A stretch of DNA of 9,262 bases from an archaeon (GCA_024275415.1 JAJRZD010000074.1:1-9262); one strand, 5' to 3'; counted from the first letter of the stretch, positions 32 through 6,226 are shown. Numbers and translations are program-made. The notes: a model not told the origin generated them from the sequence alone.

Positions 32-1873
32 CTATTCAGACATATATGGGTCCTCATCGATGTCTATCCCGAAGTACCCCATCTCTTCAAGAATGTCTTC
101 CATTGCTTCCGCACCTGAAACCCATGTCACCTTCCAATCTCCTTCAGGTGTCAAGATAAGTTCTACATCCGGAAGATCACCAAGCAGGTTGTGGTTCATC
201 TCGATGACATCTTGATATGCGCCTGTAAGAGCGATGACAAAATAGGAACCCTGTACATCCTTGAGCGACCCCACAGGTATCCCGAGCCCCATCTCTGCGT
301 TTGGCATTGCAATTGGTCTGTTGTCACGGGCAAACCACACCTCACCTACACCTTTCCTATGAAACTGGGATATCTCTCCATCAGAGTCGCAAGTGATGTC
401 CACAAGCCTGACCGTGGTTTCGGGTCTTAGATGGAGGTCTCTGACCGGGATGATGGGGAAATGCTGTTGAACCAGCACATGATCTCCAGCAGCATTGAAG
501 ACACTAAAGTTCCCGATGACGATGTGGTCAGGATACCAGATGTTTTCCAGTATCCTGTCTGACCTTAGGCTCTTGCTTCCCAATCGAGCAAGCTGACGCC
601 TCATCTCAGCACGAAGCTCGCCCACAAACCGCTCCTTGTCTAAGAGGCTCTCCAATGTTTCTGTTGTAGGTTTGGCGACTGAGAGATACTCATTCCAGAT
701 ATCCGCAAGCTCTGATATGGATGCAGCATCACTCAGTTTGTTTTTCCAATTCTCCATAACCTCCAGAAGATGTATTGGCAGTTCGTGTTCTGGTGGGAAT
801 ACTGATCTCACTTCAAGTGCTTTCACCACGACCATCGAGGACAACGCCGTAATTCCTCTTCCAGACTCGATCATGATGTCAGGCGGCTGTCGAGCGCTGC
901 CTATGTTCTTCACTTCATCTAGGATGCCCATTACGATTGCCTGTGCATACCGTTCCATCAAATTCGGGGAATGCGAACTCGTATAATCAATAGGCAAGCC
1001 ACCACCAAAGTCAATCCTCCGCAATTCCTTCAAGCCCCTCTCCCTTAGTTCGTAGAACACCCGAGTCATGAATCCGGCGAACCTTCCAAAGTCCTCGATA
1101 GCAGTGATTTGAGACCCAACATGTCCTAGAACCGTTGTGACACAGTTCTCGAAACCCTCCTTCTTGAGCAGGTCAATGACACTAAGAAGGTCGTGAATGC
1201 TCAGCCCGAACTTGGAATCCCTTCCTGCGGAGTGTGACCAATGTCCTCTGACCGTCAGATACGGCTTGATTCTAAGGACGAGAGATGTTTCTTGCGAACT
1301 CAGGATATCTACGATAAGTCTAGCCTCGTGGATTGACTCTATCGATATAGCAATGTTGTATCCATCTTTGACAAACTCCTCGATGGCTCGCAAATACTCA
1401 GGATCCTTCGCTCCATTGCAGATGATGAGCCTGTCCTTCTCGTCCTTAAGGACACTTCGTATGAGATACAATTCAGCCTTGGTTCCAGCCTCAAGCCCAT
1501 ATGACCTGTCTGCTTGCAGTACTGGGATAACGCAATCCTTCCGCTGATTCACCTTTACAGGATAAACAGCACCGAACTTCCCTTTATAGTCAAGTTCAGC
1601 CATGACTCTAGTGAAGGCGGACTTCAATTTGTGAATCTGGTAATGGATAAGCTGGGGCATCCTAAGTGTGAACGACGATGTGTATGCAGTCCTTGAGCCG
1701 TTTTCCGATTCGATCTTGCGGATGAGTTCGTCAAATGCAATGGTCTTGCCCATGAATCGGATGAACAGCTTGCCGTCATTCCCGATGTCAAGGAAATGGA
1801 GGTCATTCTTGCCAAGCCCATACACTACCCGCGACCTGTCTATTGTCCACTCTTTTGCCTTCACATGAGTCAC
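32..1873 (-). CDS. speA: Biosynthetic arginine decarboxylase (PLP-dependent, fold type III, SpeA family)
   Basis: 613-aa ORF with the SpeA motifs in order: YPVKVNQ (PLP lysine), GLEAGTKAEL, ICNGAKD, SKFGLS, HVGSQI, DFGGGLPIDY, ESGRGI, NFSVF, DITCDSDG, GAYQDV..NHNLLG. The annotated start is GTG at 1873. GTG at 1864 is at least as likely, because GGAAGTGA (1877-1870) lies 5 nt upstream of it. Confidence 0.93.
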   Translation of the reverse strand: MTHVKAKEWTIDRSRVVYGLGKNDLHFLDIGNDGKLFIRFMGKTIAFDELIRKIESENGSRTAYTSSFTLRMPQLIHYQIHKLKSAFTRVMAELDYKGKFGAVYPVKVNQRKDCVIPVLQADRSYGLEAGTKAELYLIRSVLKDEKDRLIICNGAKDPEYLRAIEEFVKDGYNIAISIESIHEARLIVDILSSQETSLVLRIKPYLTVRGHWSHSAGRDSKFGLSIHDLLSVIDLLKKEGFENCVTTVLGHVGSQITAIEDFGRFAGFMTRVFYELRERGLKELRRIDFGGGLPIDYTSSHSPNLMERYAQAIVMGILDEVKNIGSARQPPDIMIESGRGITALSSMVVVKALEVRSVFPPEHELPIHLLEVMENWKNKLSDAASISELADIWNEYLSVAKPTTETLESLLDKERFVGELRAEMRRQLARLGSKSLRSDRILENIWYPDHIVIGNFSVFNAAGDHVLVQQHFPIIPVRDLHLRPETTVRLVDITCDSDGEISQFHRKGVGEVWFARDNRPIAMPNAEMGLGIPVGSLKDVQGSYFVIALTGAYQDVIEMNHNLLGDLPDVELILTPEGDWKVTWVSGAEAMEDILEEMGYFGIDIDEDPYMSE

Positions 1874-1891: not shown

Positions 1892-3361
1892 CTACTGGGG
1901 CTCATCTTCTTTTATGGAGTCGAGCATCCCTTGGAACGCTCTTGCGAGGTCTCCAATCTCGTCATCCTTATCCATGTATCTCTTATCAACTTGAAGGTCT
2001 TCGGCATCAAGCTTCTCTTCCCTGATCATGGCTGAAACATTGCGAGTTGCAAGATCCATCAAGTACTGTAAAGGCCCAGTGATTTGATTGGCGACTGCAA
2101 CTGCCACCACAGCTGCCAATGCAATACCTCCTACAGTTATGGCAAGAATGAACATGGTGGCAGCAACATTGGCTTCTGTAATCCTTGCTTCAAGAAGTGG
2201 TATGGCTTCTTGCACCTCCTCCACAGGGACGATGATGATACAGATGTAGCCTCCAACTCCAACAGGTGTGTGAACAAGAATGAACTCCTTGTTATCTTTG
2301 CTGAACTCGATAGTTCCCGTTGTCCCTGAAAGGATCTGATTCATCTGGACTGTGGTCAATGCCGATGTTGTCCCGTCCACCTCGAACTCCTGAAGAGTAG
2401 GTAATCTCCCAAACTGTGTGTCGTACCGCTCATAGACATCATCGTCCACATTGGGGTGCGCTAGAATCTCACCTGACTGGGTCACCAATGCGGCATATCC
2501 TGTTTCTAAGATTTGAACATCAAGAATCTTTGATCGGATGTTCTCAATGGATATGTCACCGGCGACTATCCCGATTAGCGTTGCAGTATCATCGTAGACT
2601 GCTCTTCCAATTGACATCAGAAGGACGTTGTCTATTGGGTCCAGATATGGTCCATAGTAGACCATTTCTCCCATTCCTGCGCGGATTGCCTGATAGAATT
2701 CATCACCTGTAGGATACCATGGGTCTGTATTCCTATCAGTATCAGTTCCTCCTACGGAACTCCCAGGATAATTGATCCACAGGTCATTCTCAAAGCCAAC
2801 GTACAACCATCTGAACTCGGGTAACTGGGCATGGACATACTGGAACATAAAGTCGAGGTTGGAAACCCGTTCCAGTTTCTCTTGATTCGCAGTATAGTAG
2901 GTGGCGTAGTTAGTGGAATCCGAACCTGGAATGTACCAGCTACTGTAATTCCAGCTGATATTGATTCCATATCTGGAGTCATAATGCGTATCAGCAGGGT
3001 ATGTCCCAGCGGCACCGTATTGGAAGAAGTAGTCATAGTAAATGTTACTTCTTGGAAGGTAGGTGGAGCTCGAATCGAATAACTGCTCGCATTCTTCGGC
3101 GATAGCAGAAACCAGACCTTCGGCACTCTGCAACTTTTGCTTTATCACATCAGCATTCTCTTCTGCTGTTATCTCCATGTTCCTTCGGATCTGTTCCTCA
3201 AGTGCAAGCGAACTCTGACTGGTTGTAGAACTCCCAATCAAACCGATGAATTGGTATGAGATGAAGCCTGTTGCACCTAGTGATAGAATTGTTATCACTA
3301 GGAATGTTGCAATTACATTTCTCCGAAAACTCCCTTTCTTCTTTGTCTTTTCCATGGTCAT
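1892..3361 (-). CDS. Membrane sensor: TM1 - extracytoplasmic dCache_1-like domain - TM2 - HAMP, with no cytoplasmic output domain
   Basis: Basic N-terminus (KTKKKGSFRR), then hydrophobic TM1 (aa ~16-42). Cache signatures: WLYVGF..INYP, GPYLDP, IGIVAGDI, GYAALVTQSGEILAHP. TM2 at aa ~400-424. HAMP helices ITGPLQYL and DDEIGDLARAFQGML, with the stop ~9 aa later. Probable start is ATG 3355, 8 nt after GGAGG. Confidence 0.85.
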   Translation of the reverse strand: MTMEKTKKKGSFRRNVIATFLVITILSLGATGFISYQFIGLIGSSTTSQSSLALEEQIRRNMEITAEENADVIKQKLQSAEGLVSAIAEECEQLFDSSSTYLPRSNIYYDYFFQYGAAGTYPADTHYDSRYGINISWNYSSWYIPGSDSTNYATYYTANQEKLERVSNLDFMFQYVHAQLPEFRWLYVGFENDLWINYPGSSVGGTDTDRNTDPWYPTGDEFYQAIRAGMGEMVYYGPYLDPIDNVLLMSIGRAVYDDTATLIGIVAGDISIENIRSKILDVQILETGYAALVTQSGEILAHPNVDDDVYERYDTQFGRLPTLQEFEVDGTTSALTTVQMNQILSGTTGTIEFSKDNKEFILVHTPVGVGGYICIIIVPVEEVQEAIPLLEARITEANVAATMFILAITVGGIALAAVVAVAVANQITGPLQYLMDLATRNVSAMIREEKLDAEDLQVDKRYMDKDDEIGDLARAFQGMLDSIKEDEPQ

Positions 3362-3363
3362 CT

Positions 3364-3368
3364 CCTCC
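3364..3368 (-). promoter_or_regulatory. Shine-Dalgarno site GGAGG overlapping the upstream stop codon (TAGGAGG), consistent with translational coupling
   Basis: The minus strand reads TAG-GAG-GAG-ATG-ACC-ATG. GGAGG lies 8 nt before ATG 3355. Confidence 0.7.
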
Positions 3369-6208
3369 TAGTAATCGTCGGTTGTCCCTCCGACTTCCAG
3401 CTGTGCCATCATCACGGCGACCTCTTGGAACGCTCTTTCAATGTCCAACCTCACATTCTTGCTATCCACCACTGAGAAGTATTGACCTTGTGGGATAGAT
3501 TCACAGACTGACTCTAGTAACTCCTCGAATGTCATCCTCCGCCCTGTTCTTTCTGATCTGATATTCTCCTCGATTGGATTGGCCAATTCCTCTCCCACTC
3601 CAATGATGATCAAATTGACATCAAGGTGGTTATCTCGAATGAAACCCTCTATAGTAAGAGGTCTCCTTCTTCTTTGTCTGTCTTTCTCAGTCCGTATTCC
3701 TTTCAACATGTCAAGTGAGTACTTCTCAGAGCTATTATCTTGCCCATCCGTTAAGGCAATGACCCATCTGTGTTCGCTAGATTCGATTAGGTTTAGATCT
3801 TCCAGTGCTCTACCAAGTGCATCGTAGAATGCAGTAGCATAGTTCGGATACCTCAGAGAATCAAGCGCTTTCCATATCGGGCTATCTTTTGGATTCTCGT
3901 ATTCACCCTTTCTAGTAAGTGGAAGCAGCTGTTGGTATGAGCTGTTGAAGATGATTATGCCGACCTCATCTTGAGGGTTAATTTGACTAGAAAGTATCTC
4001 TTTTGCTCCAGTAACCGCAGCTTGAATCCGGTTCTGTGCTCTCATGCTTCCGGAGTAGTCGATGACAAATACCACGCTCTTCTTGAATTGTATCGAACGT
4101 CGCAGTTTCTCTGCTTGCCTTCGCAATTCGTGGCTTGACTCACCGAGTTGGTCTTTCACATCTGCAAGATGCTGCATGGCAACCACTTGCAATGCATATT
4201 CCTCGGTTCGCTCAGCATAGTTCACTGACTCTTGGTATGCGTTTTTCGCCTTTTGCCATTCGTCCTGCAACTCATGAAGTTCACCGATGTGATAGTTGAT
4301 GTATGCAAGCCCTCTATCGTAGTTGTGGTCTTCAGCTATACGTTTCGCCTCATTGAACTTGGAATAGGCTTGGCTATACTGTCCTTTCCGCATCATGACC
4401 AGACCCATTGCATCATATCGTCGGGCCAGTCCTCTTACATTCCCTATTGTCTGGTCAATGGCCTCTGCATCTTCAAGCCTCGATATGGCGTCATCGAATT
4501 CCTTCATGTCCATTTTTATGAGTGCAATGTTGTGATACGCTGAAGCAACTCGATCCATAGCATCGGTTTCATTCAGTCCACCTTCCTTTGCTTGCTTCAG
4601 AAGTTCTTTTGCAAGAGTAAGAGCCCGTTCGTAGTATTCTAGGGCATTCCCTGTATCTCCTCTTTGCCTGAAGACATTCCCAATGTTGAGATACATGGTC
4701 TGCTCCCCAATATCGATATCAAGCCTTCTACTGATCTCAAGCAGATTCTGGTAGTTAGACAATGCCCTGTTCAGGTCTCCACGGATGAATGCCTGATTTC
4801 CAAACCGGCAAGCTTCTTGAAAACTGAGAAGCGCGTCTACTGTCGTTCCGATTTCTTCATACATTGCTCCTGTAGCGGTGATGCTTCTCGTGAAGTCTTG
4901 TTTTGCCATCTTCTCCACGAGGTTTGTCATCTCCCTCAACGGCTCAACGACCGACTGTCCTCTCTTATAGGACACCACGCCCACAATTATCGCAACAGCA
5001 CCCAGCACTCCACCAAGGATGAGTGTCAGGAAGAATGTCTGTTGTTGCACTAGAGCAAGGATGTCCACTGCTGGCTGTACGACCTCAGATGAAGGAACCA
5101 CCACGGCAAGCAGGAATCCTGTGTTGTTAACACGTTCATAGGTGAAATACCACTCCTCTCCATCTTTGATGAAGGTGTCTTGTCCGCTACCCGAAGCAAG
5201 TGCACCGGTAAGGATGGATGAGAATGCGGTTCTTTCACTTGTTGATTGGAACTCAAGTTCGTAAATAGACTCGCGAGCGTCTGTCAGGTCTGGGTGAGCA
5301 AGAACATCACCATCCGATTCGAGGATGTATGCGTAGCCACTTTCCAGCACTTGGATGTCTAGGACACTTGTCAGGATTGTGTTCATGGTCACATCAGCTG
5401 ATACAACACCAATCAGTGTGCCATTGTCCCAGTAGATTGGCCTACCTAGTGAGATGACAAGTCCTGTTGAAGGGTCTCCGTATGGGCTAGTTATTACGAT
5501 TCCATCATCATTCATGGGGACTGCAGCAGCACTTGTGTACCATCCTTCTACCTGAGGATTGTAATCCTCGGCTGGTGTATCTCCAAGGAAATATTCGAGG
5601 TTATCGTAAGGATAGTTCTTGAACAAGTGGCTTGAGCTTACCGTTTCATCAAAGTACATGTACAGCCATATGTAATCAGAACTCATCTCATGCAATGACC
5701 GGAAGACATTGTCCATGTTGCTTGAAACATTGAGCAGATACTCTGTGGTAGTGTCAAGATTGAAGGGATCACCAGGTGTTGGATAGTAGTTTCTAGGCAT
5801 GTAGTAACAACTTGTTTCAAAGGAAATCGAGTACGAATCATAATCGGGGTTATATGAGGGGTCTAACCCCGGAACTGGATGCCCTCTCGAACTCTCTAAT
5901 GCCGGATCCCAGAAATAATAGTCTTGGGGGTTAGCATTTATCCTACCGTTAAAGAGGTCTTCTGCATACTTCTCCATGATATATACTCCATCAATGTAGT
6001 TCTTCATGCGCTCTTCGATGAACAGCGCAGTATCTCCTGCAATTCTCTGGAGATTTGCAACCTCTTCATTCTTCAGTGCTTGTGCAGCATCGCCTGCATT
6101 CTCATTTGAAACATTGAATATTGTCATCACTGATATTCCAGAGATGAACAGCATCGGGATCAATGAAACCGTCACGAATGCCACAATTATTCTCCTACTG
6201 ATTTTCAT
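3368..6208 (-). CDS. Membrane sensor: TM1 - dCache_1-like - TM2 - HAMP - TPR array - vWA (MIDAS) domain
   Basis: TM1 at aa ~7-30. Cache signatures: WLYMYF..KNYP, YNPQVEGWY, SPYGDP, IGVVSADV, GYAYILESDGDVLAHP. TM2 at aa ~392-413. HAMP: VVEPLREM...EEIGTTVDAL. About 5-6 TPR units at aa ~463-700 (e.g. YLNIGNVFRQRGDTGNALEYYERAL, YHNIALIKMDMKEFDDAISRLEDA). vWA at aa ~711-935 with VFVIDYSGSM (DxSxS), TAFYDAL and IALTDGQDN. Confidence 0.88.
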   Translation of the reverse strand: MKISRRIIVAFVTVSLIPMLFISGISVMTIFNVSNENAGDAAQALKNEEVANLQRIAGDTALFIEERMKNYIDGVYIMEKYAEDLFNGRINANPQDYYFWDPALESSRGHPVPGLDPSYNPDYDSYSISFETSCYYMPRNYYPTPGDPFNLDTTTEYLLNVSSNMDNVFRSLHEMSSDYIWLYMYFDETVSSSHLFKNYPYDNLEYFLGDTPAEDYNPQVEGWYTSAAAVPMNDDGIVITSPYGDPSTGLVISLGRPIYWDNGTLIGVVSADVTMNTILTSVLDIQVLESGYAYILESDGDVLAHPDLTDARESIYELEFQSTSERTAFSSILTGALASGSGQDTFIKDGEEWYFTYERVNNTGFLLAVVVPSSEVVQPAVDILALVQQQTFFLTLILGGVLGAVAIIVGVVSYKRGQSVVEPLREMTNLVEKMAKQDFTRSITATGAMYEEIGTTVDALLSFQEACRFGNQAFIRGDLNRALSNYQNLLEISRRLDIDIGEQTMYLNIGNVFRQRGDTGNALEYYERALTLAKELLKQAKEGGLNETDAMDRVASAYHNIALIKMDMKEFDDAISRLEDAEAIDQTIGNVRGLARRYDAMGLVMMRKGQYSQAYSKFNEAKRIAEDHNYDRGLAYINYHIGELHELQDEWQKAKNAYQESVNYAERTEEYALQVVAMQHLADVKDQLGESSHELRRQAEKLRRSIQFKKSVVFVIDYSGSMRAQNRIQAAVTGAKEILSSQINPQDEVGIIIFNSSYQQLLPLTRKGEYENPKDSPIWKALDSLRYPNYATAFYDALGRALEDLNLIESSEHRWVIALTDGQDNSSEKYSLDMLKGIRTEKDRQRRRRPLTIEGFIRDNHLDVNLIIIGVGEELANPIEENIRSERTGRRMTFEELLESVCESIPQGQYFSVVDSKNVRLDIERAFQEVAVMMAQLEVGGTTDDY

Positions 6209-6217
6209 GTCTTACAT

Positions 6218-6226
6218 TCACACTCC
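6218..6226 (-). promoter_or_regulatory. Shine-Dalgarno-like GGAGTGTGA overlapping the upstream stop codon
   Basis: The minus strand reads TAGGAGTGTGAATGTAAGACATG. GTGA ends 9 nt before ATG 6208. Confidence 0.55.

Follow-up and report, generated by a model that had tools for sequence, protein, structure and literature searches.

A stretch of archaeal DNA of 9,262 bases, called the window throughout, carries on its minus strand four co-oriented genes, which encode a propeller protein, two paralogous receptors (receptor 1 and receptor 2) and a SpeA-like decarboxylase (Table 1). Within a genome of 3.5 Mb that is 92.9% complete, the window forms contig C54, and close homologues of its proteins are annotated as Candidatus Thorarchaeota, which belong to the Asgard archaea. 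Receptor 2 adjoins receptor 1 in essentially every locus that we examined. Our subject is the ligand pocket of receptor 1, where a glutamate stands at the position of the arginine that binds the ligand carboxylate in amino acid sensors, and the bearing of this change on the decarboxylase gene at the end of the cassette.

Table 1. Features of the window, and of related loci where a locus is named, with their coordinates
Feature	Coordinates	Strand	Basis
SpeA-like PLP (pyridoxal phosphate)-dependent arginine decarboxylase, 613 aa (amino acids), last cassette gene	32..1873	-	Pfam Orn_Arg_deC_N
Receptor 2 gene, 489 aa: paralogous dCache_1, then HAMP-like end	1892..3361	-	ORF (open reading frame), Pfam
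Receptor 2 pocket motif W215-Y-P-T-G-D220-E-F222-Y223, Asp at Arg position	2693..2719	-	HMM (hidden Markov model) and MAFFT alignments
Receptor 1 gene, 946 aa: TM1 (first transmembrane segment), extracytoplasmic dCache_1, TM2, TPR repeats, vWA	3368..6208	-	ORF, Pfam
Receptor 1 extracytoplasmic ligand-binding domain (predicted), aa 31-390, net charge about -40	5039..6118	-	AF2 (AlphaFold2) model, charge count
Receptor 1 acidified segment D202-D235 (D202, D210, E214, D215, E221, D234, D235)	5504..5605	-	Column contrast with Arg-type relatives
Receptor 1 pocket motif, N-terminal half, Y216-N-P-Q-V-E221-G-W223-Y224 (PctA Y121...R126.W128.Y129)	5537..5563	-	Ungapped alignment to PctA, PctB, Mlp24
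E221 codon, at carboxylate-binding Arg position (PctA R126)	5546..5548	-	Alignment
Y243-G-D245 (PctA Y144, D146); Y243 is the amino-group-binding Tyr of AA_motif	5474..5482	-	Alignment
Y243 codon, in PYGD (aa 242-245)	5480-5482
D272 codon, in VSAD (aa 269-272; PctA D173), amino-group-binding Asp	5393..5395	-	Alignment
Beta-propeller / Zn-ribbon / PCI-like protein, first cassette gene	6226..7668	-	Domain searches
HDAC-family gene	7738-8817	divergent from cassette	Best PDB matches HDAC6 and bacterial HDAH-type amidohydrolases
Open-ended ORF	8915-9262		Weak match to LipS2-family lipoyl synthase, E 5e-9
Second decarboxylase-family genes in related loci	L003:14132-15514; L020:12615-14054; L021:12235-13674

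Receptor 1 has two hydrophobic segments only, at aa 7-31 and 392-414, and these flank a dCache_1 domain that is matched by Pfam PF02743 over aa 207-370 (E 6.7e-21; 75.4 bits against a cut-off of 45) and that scored 76.8 bits in a genome-wide search. The C-terminal part gave Pfam matches to TPR_12 and VWA_2/VWA. An AF2 model of aa 30-400, built with 25 homologues, had a mean predicted local distance difference test score (pLDDT) of 88.7, and of about 92 over residues 210-229; it matched solved dCache_1 domains with Z scores of 18-21, among them PctC in complex with γ-aminobutyric acid (GABA), to which it could be fitted at Z 19.5 with a root mean square deviation of 2.1 Å over 222 residues. The sensor domain of receptor 1 thus belongs to dCache_1: it has the double PAS-like fold with a long N-terminal helix and lies between two TM segments. 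The fold does not tell the ligand class, however, since amino-acid-type, amine-type (3lib, PctD and McpX) and other dCache_1 domains all scored equally, at Z 17-21. When a profile of the Asgard sensor domain was compared with PDB sequences, the best matches were the eukaryotic proteins CACHD1 (E 2.8e-25) and alpha2delta-1 (6.7e-22), ahead of all bacterial ligand-binding domains. VIA alignments covered ~290-320 residues of alpha2delta at 22-24% identity, compared with 220-250 residues and 15-20% for the bacterial domains; in view of this greater length, the eukaryotic CACHD1/alpha2delta proteins may have a counterpart to the ~100 residues by which the Asgard domain is longer.

The residues that line the pocket were read against PctA. 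In the AA_motif of PctA, the contacts to the ligand carboxylate come from Y121, R126 and W128, and those to the amino group from Y144 and D173; the R126A substitution lowers affinity 61-fold, and D173A shows no binding (PMC8915833). A phmmer search of the PDB (E about 1e-11 for PctA, PctB and Mlp24) paired the PctA stretch ydpRsRpWY with ynpqvEgWY of receptor 1 without a gap (E 9e-12), and the same alignment placed PYVD and VGGD of PctA on PYGD and VSAD. Since the alignment is ungapped, E221 is equated with R126, Y216 with Y121, W223 with W128, Y224 with Y129, Y243 with Y144 and D272 with D173, and the distance from Y243 to D272, 29 residues, equals that from Y144 to D173 in PctA. A first-pass annotation of this DNA had picked out the same residues at the same spacing and had placed Glu at the carboxylate-binding Arg position; translation confirmed all of its residues and coordinates, its account of the established amino acid motif agrees with the published one (PMC8915833), and the swap that it noticed proved to be conserved. 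By its ungapped homology to R126, in a segment that is confidently modelled, the E221 side chain is predicted to point into the pocket.

A search of 5.8 billion proteins yielded about 120 clusters with the architecture of receptor 1, at 41-82% identity, and the names of these homologues, where given, are nearly all those of Thor-, Heimdall-, Hermod-, Hod-, Sif- or Lokiarchaeota. At position 221, 104 of the 120 homologues have E, 13 have Q, two have Y and one has L; none has R or K. Around it, Y216 and Y243 are each kept in 117 of 120, and W223, Y224, D245, S253, R256 and D272 in every one. Such a pattern at position 221 among neighbours that are kept argues that the Glu swap did not arise by chance, and the near-invariance of the pocket residues points to a working pocket, as a dead one would not keep them. 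One Thorarchaeota genome has a TAA stop within the sensor domain of receptor 1 (G368:C1:196818-197939), possibly a pseudogene or a sequencing error. More distant relatives were sought by an exhaustive HMMER search of 1.84 billion representatives, and proteins of the same length at 33-40% identity were found to combine the dCache-TPR-vWA architecture with the canonical motif YD..R.WY...Y.D...D. Position 221 is R in 61 of 61 Arg-type relatives, and with the canonical motif present in distant proteins of the same architecture, the simplest reading is that the Arg-less state is derived.

Loss of the Arg is accompanied by a change in charge. Compared with the 61 Arg-type relatives, Arg-less receptor 1 has lost two basic positions (the R219 equivalent and R221) and gained D202, D210, D215, E221, D/E222 and D234, so that the net charge of the 37-residue segment 200-236 is -10.1 in the Arg-less proteins and -1.4 in the Arg-type ones. 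Outside this segment the domain is more acidic as well (-33 versus -21), and the whole domain carries -43 versus -22, with -40 over 375 residues in the window protein. An overall acidification, such as salt adaptation would bring, was weighed as the only cause; it explains part of the shift, but leaves unexplained why ~9 charge units fall within the 37 residues around the pocket.

We then read the residue at the Arg position in every receptor of 43 fetched loci, with counts restricted to domains whose context was readable. The trio of receptor 1, receptor 2 and a SpeA-like gene occurs in Thorarchaeota and in five further Asgard genome families, some of them annotated as Heimdallarchaeota, and the SpeA-like gene either follows on the same strand or stands upstream in divergent orientation (L017, L018, L023 and L039). 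Among 36 domains from SpeA-adjacent loci, all lack the Arg; among 13 domains from loci without SpeA, 12 have it and one does not. We regard this contrast as the strongest piece of the new evidence. Genome G065 holds both kinds, an Arg-less pair beside SpeA (L018) and a SpeA-free pair with Arg in receptor 1 (L019). At a threshold of E 1e-40, no SpeA-like gene was present in the genomes of families f21 (0/14), f22 (0/135) and f23 (0/4); the receptor loci fetched from f21 (L024, L032-L034, L042 and L043) are all Arg-type, and those of f22 and f23 were not among the fetched loci. The propeller gene upstream of receptor 1 is kept in the Thorarchaeota loci and occurs in an Arg-type locus too. Two further suggestions of the first-pass annotation can be judged from these data. 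The net acidic pocket is borne out at the sequence level by the charge contrast in segment 200-236, with the reservation that the remainder of the domain is more acidic as well, and the link to the co-clustered SpeA extends across Asgard families and at least two separate lineages.

The change is not confined to receptor 1. The pocket motif of receptor 2 in the window has Asp at the Arg position, and E, D, Q or N is found there in receptor 2 of SpeA-linked loci. Receptor 2 has the same kind of swap and probably senses a related cation.

Because the relatives are not independent of one another, sensor-domain trees were built; these included no verified dCache_1AM sequence (the amine-sensing class discussed below). 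SpeA-linked receptor 1 sequences from Thorarchaeota and families f8, f11, f13 and f14 form a main clade (Shimodaira-Hasegawa-like approximate likelihood ratio test [SH-aLRT] support 98-99), and their receptor 2 partners form a separate clade with support of 99. The Arg-type L005 pair adjoins these clades, its receptor 2 as a sister (95-96) and its receptor 1 as an adjacent branch with weaker support (83-89). The SpeA-linked receptors of family f10 make up two further clades (support 100) that are embedded elsewhere, among Arg-type sequences. In the approximately unbiased (AU) test, joining the Arg-less receptor 1 and receptor 2 clades was rejected (p 1.7e-5), as was joining f10 with the main receptor 1 clade (p 0.0099). 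Given the separate clades and these rejections, the trees indicate at least four branches on which the Arg was lost (or regained, which is less parsimonious), in receptor 1 and receptor 2 of two lineages each, always together with SpeA adjacency.

The enzyme that accompanies these changes (P0004) matches the solved SpeA of V. vulnificus (3n2o) over its full length (residues 11-607; E 7e-58) and has the conserved motifs PVKVNQ, with the PLP-binding Lys, GGGLxIDY, ESGR, DITCDSDG and GAYQ. It falls just below the NCBIfam cut-off for biosynthetic arginine decarboxylase NF003763 (344.9 versus 369) and below that for TIGR01273 (322.5 versus 624), and is a full-length but divergent SpeA homologue. 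It is also the only PF02784 enzyme found in the 92.9%-complete genome, in which we found neither a LysA-type diaminopimelate (DAP) decarboxylase of that family nor a pyruvoyl arginine decarboxylase; its one agmatinase/arginase-family gene is on contig C98, away from the cassette. With a SpeA-like sequence, no second PF02784 enzyme and no pyruvoyl arginine decarboxylase, P0004 is probably the route of the cell to agmatine. Archaea need agmatine for the agmatidine of tRNA-Ile and for polyamine and hypusine synthesis, so control of the only recognisable gene for its synthesis would be physiologically central. In the Heimdall-named family, a second, shorter gene of the Orn/DAP/Arg decarboxylase family (460-479 aa) directly follows the SpeA-like gene (Table 1).

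The carboxylate that the lost Arg had bound is the very group that arginine decarboxylase takes off, and the product side of the enzyme is the most likely class of ligand. We lean towards reading receptor 1 as a two-pass membrane sensor whose membrane-distal pocket, derived from that of an amino acid sensor, has been re-tuned for an amine without an alpha-carboxylate, most likely agmatine or a di- or polyamine; the assignment to agmatine or polyamine is a well-motivated prediction. Y243 and D272, with D245, would bind a primary ammonium group in the manner of amino acid sensors, and W223 and Y216 would be the aromatic walls. In place of the carboxylate-binding Arg, Glu221 together with D202, D210, D215 and D234/235 would repel carboxylates and attract a cation. 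Agmatine, which is arginine without its carboxylate, could sit as arginine does in Arg-binding dCache_1 domains, with the former alpha-amino group on Y243/D272 and with Glu221 filling the space of the missing carboxylate and adding a salt bridge; a di- or polyamine derived from agmatine would be equally compatible. TM2 would relay the signal to the enzyme-free TPR-vWA arm, and the SpeA-containing cassette may be tuned as feedback from an external amine, comparable to the effect of cadaverine on CadC. It is conceivable, if doubtful, that a wider statement holds, in which both paralogous Cache sensors were converted from sensing amino acids to sensing the decarboxylated amine, agmatine or a polyamine, at least two times independently, each time with recruitment of an arginine decarboxylase; this would amount to a kinase-free archaeal system of extracellular polyamine feedback or signalling and to a third independent dCache_1 amine pocket.

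Several observations weigh against the amine reading or narrow it. The sensor faces outward and SpeA is cytoplasmic, so a loop that senses the product would need export or an external source of the amine. The residue at position 221 is not always acidic in SpeA-linked lineages, being Y, F or Q in the Heimdall-named family, W or F in another, and S or Q in f10, where L026-L028 have S or Q and L030/L031 have E; the window protein itself has G222, a position with D or E in 104 of 120 homologues. The invariant R256, three residues past the pocket-strand residue S253, could form a pair with either E221 or D245, which would neutralise the pocket in part. The acidity is spread over the whole domain rather than the pocket alone, which would also fit metal or pH sensing. 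In the comparison of loci, the sole exception is receptor 2 of L019 (L019:5863-7497, G065), which has Asp with no adjacent SpeA and with a partner receptor 1 that keeps the Arg. The independent contrasts number at most four, all concordant (sign test p 0.125); the two receptors of a locus have a common context, and the groups compared in the AU tests were defined after a first tree had been inspected. In f10 the SpeA-linked receptor 1 (L026-L028, L030 and L031) has LDxDP instead of SPYGDP, and as the Tyr243 equivalent is gone, the amino-group half of the motif is not universally kept. The first-pass annotation thus stands in modified form. Loss of Arg with a gain of acidity is universal, although Glu as the replacement is not, and the retained Tyr and Asp hold for nearly all of the 120 homologues but, for the Tyr, not for f10. 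R256 was also considered as a relocated carboxylate binder; this position is K or R in 36 of the 61 Arg-type relatives, and the idea of a clade-specific compensation was rejected because basic residues are common there.

Other ligands have to be weighed against the same evidence. The pocket might still bind a basic amino acid such as arginine, lysine or ornithine, with Y216 and W223 holding the carboxylate, and E221 and the acidic residues holding the side chain. Of the six AA_motif positions, five are unchanged, amino acid binders (arginine complexes of Mlp24, Mlp37 and PctB among them) are the nearest solved relatives in both sequence and fold, the R126A substitution in PctA weakens binding without abolishing it, and sensing of the substrate beside a decarboxylase would make biological sense. 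We nevertheless consider a basic amino acid quite unlikely: a Glu at the Arg position would go beyond the loss of one contact and repel a carboxylate, the R219 equivalent is lost too, and in published work on related motifs, single mismatches were enough to abolish binding of the class of ligand expected. Moreover, the canonical Arg-type paralogues, the expected amino acid sensors, are exactly those without a link to SpeA.

It is unlikely, too, that the acidic cluster senses protons or a metal (Ca2+, Mg2+ or another) and that the cassette is a pH- or ion-responsive decarboxylase system. This would account for the very acidic domain (-40 over 375 aa), with its gain beyond the pocket residues, and for the replacement of the Tyr243 equivalent in f10 within an Asp-rich LDxDP stretch; amino acid decarboxylases are classic acid-stress enzymes, and CadC senses pH as well as cadaverine. 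A bare ion would not, however, be expected to keep Y243, D272, W223 and Y224 near-invariant in the main clade, as an organic ammonium group would; no antiporter gene of the acid-resistance type was seen in the loci examined, and P0004 is most like biosynthetic SpeA. Finally, the ligand could be some other small molecule unrelated to polyamines, or there could be none, and SpeA adjacency would then reflect co-inheritance. dCache_1 domains bind many classes of ligand, about four independent contrasts only stand behind the association, the receptor pair and the propeller gene exist without SpeA, which makes SpeA an add-on, and SpeA-like paralogues occur without receptors (L035-L037). We give this explanation a small probability, since the association is found in every SpeA-adjacent locus, across six genome families and both arrangements of SpeA, since the same residue changed in parallel in both paralogues and again in a separate lineage, and since the loss of a carboxylate binder matches the chemistry of an enzyme that removes the carboxylate.

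The genes beyond the cassette were also compared among loci. The HDAC-family gene stands divergent beside the cassette in Thorarchaeota loci, and in G315, a Thorarchaeota genome without the receptors, an HDAC homologue (53% identity) is divergent beside a second-type SpeA-like gene (35% identity; L035:7132-10069). Its place beside a SpeA-like gene even where the receptors are missing hints at a polyamine-related deacetylase role that is independent of them. At the place of the open-ended ORF, related Thorarchaeota loci have radical-SAM genes, and L002 has an LplA-B-like gene as well.

For sensing of a decarboxylated amine, three independent lines agree: the chemistry of the pocket, the parallel changes in the paired receptors and the repeated association with arginine decarboxylase. 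If the amine reading is true, it extends the approach by which a motif predicts the ligand of a Cache domain to a new amine-type pocket, shows how an amino acid pocket can be re-tuned for the decarboxylated product, and provides a first handle on the signals of the enzyme-free dCache-TPR-vWA receptors of Asgard archaea. In the literature searched we found no description of this Asgard receptor family, of its pocket or of a SpeA-linked Cache sensor, and no Asgard sensor with an assigned signal; ligands are unknown for nearly all archaeal receptors.

Among known sensors, those of the dCache_1AA class (PctA, PctB, PctC, Mlp24, Mlp37 and CtaA; Gumerov et al. 2022, PMC8915833) are closest. They share the fold (Z 18-19.5), are the top bacterial sequence matches in the PDB and have five of six motif positions in common with receptor 1 (Y216, W223, Y224, Y243 and D272), whose nearest relatives in the databases, Asgard receptors, share its dCache-TPR-vWA architecture and have the complete motif. 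Receptor 1 departs from the definition of the class at one defining residue, in that the Arg is Glu and is non-basic across the clade; it further lacks the neighbouring basic residue, has gained about five acidic residues, is longer in its sensor domain by ~100 residues and has an enzyme-free TPR-vWA arm as its output.

In ligand, the predicted pocket would resemble McpU of P. putida and TlpQ of P. aeruginosa, whose dCache domains (6F9G and 6FU4) bind polyamines and histamine. McpU and TlpQ bind agmatine, putrescine, cadaverine and spermidine with nM-µM affinity in a highly negative pocket, and TlpQ holds the primary amine by a Tyr/Asp/Asp triad (Y208/D210/D239) together with a Glu, E170 (PMC6234866). 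Receptor 1 has Y243/D245/D272 and E221 in the same order, a putative correspondence drawn from the published description of the pocket, and its dCache domain is likewise large (~360 aa, versus 334 aa in TlpQ). The similarity in sequence is remote (E 0.095 for 6f9g and 0.27 for 6fu4 in the PDB profile search, versus 1e-20 for amino acid binders), and these proteins are proteobacterial chemoreceptors with a methyl-accepting chemotaxis protein (MCP) output, unlike the archaeal receptor 1, which has neither an enzymatic nor an MCP output. Neither McpU nor TlpQ was among the best 50 Foldseek or VIA matches of the model, from which a difference in fold should not be read. We set aside PacG, an agmatine-binding chemoreceptor described recently, since its description offers no dCache pocket for comparison. 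CadC of E. coli, whose periplasmic domain binds cadaverine and feeds back on the cadBA decarboxylase operon (PMC11484849), is alike in its manner of working only, as an extracytoplasmic sensor that binds the product of the decarboxylase it controls. Its sensor fold is unrelated, it is a one-component DNA binder of the ToxR type, and its acid-stress decarboxylase is paired with an antiporter; in the Asgard cassette the regulatory link is a proposal only.

The dCache_1AM class (PctD, PacA, McpX and M. mazei 3LIB; Cerna-Vargas et al. 2023, PMC10589655) offers a precedent for the proposed change, as it too derives from an amino acid sensor by replacement of the carboxylate-binding part, with the aromatic pair and the final Asp kept (PMC10589655). 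It forms one branch, marked by an upstream insertion with an Arg-Asp pair and a Trp that sandwiches the ligand (PctD R103, D133 and W155), and in archaea it was found in Halobacteriota only; it binds mainly small methylamines and quaternary amines, through cation-pi contacts, and in the domains screened in that study no thermal shift was seen with putrescine or agmatine (PMC10589655). Mapped through the PctA alignment and the published correspondences, PctD F188/Y189, D235 and the hydrophobic/Ser pair M215/S217 fall on W223/Y224, D272 and V251/S253 of receptor 1, positions that are common to amino acid sensors and so do not discriminate between the classes. The fold scores (3lib Z 18.6 and 7prq Z 18.1) are tied with those of amino acid binders, and the profile of the Asgard sensor domain matched 3lib (E 5.5e-17) no more closely than it did Mlp24 or PctA. 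Unlike dCache_1AM, the Arg-less clades nest among Asgard Arg-type sensors and have Arg-type proteins as their nearest relatives, and the Arg-less Asgard pocket likely arose independently of dCache_1AM.

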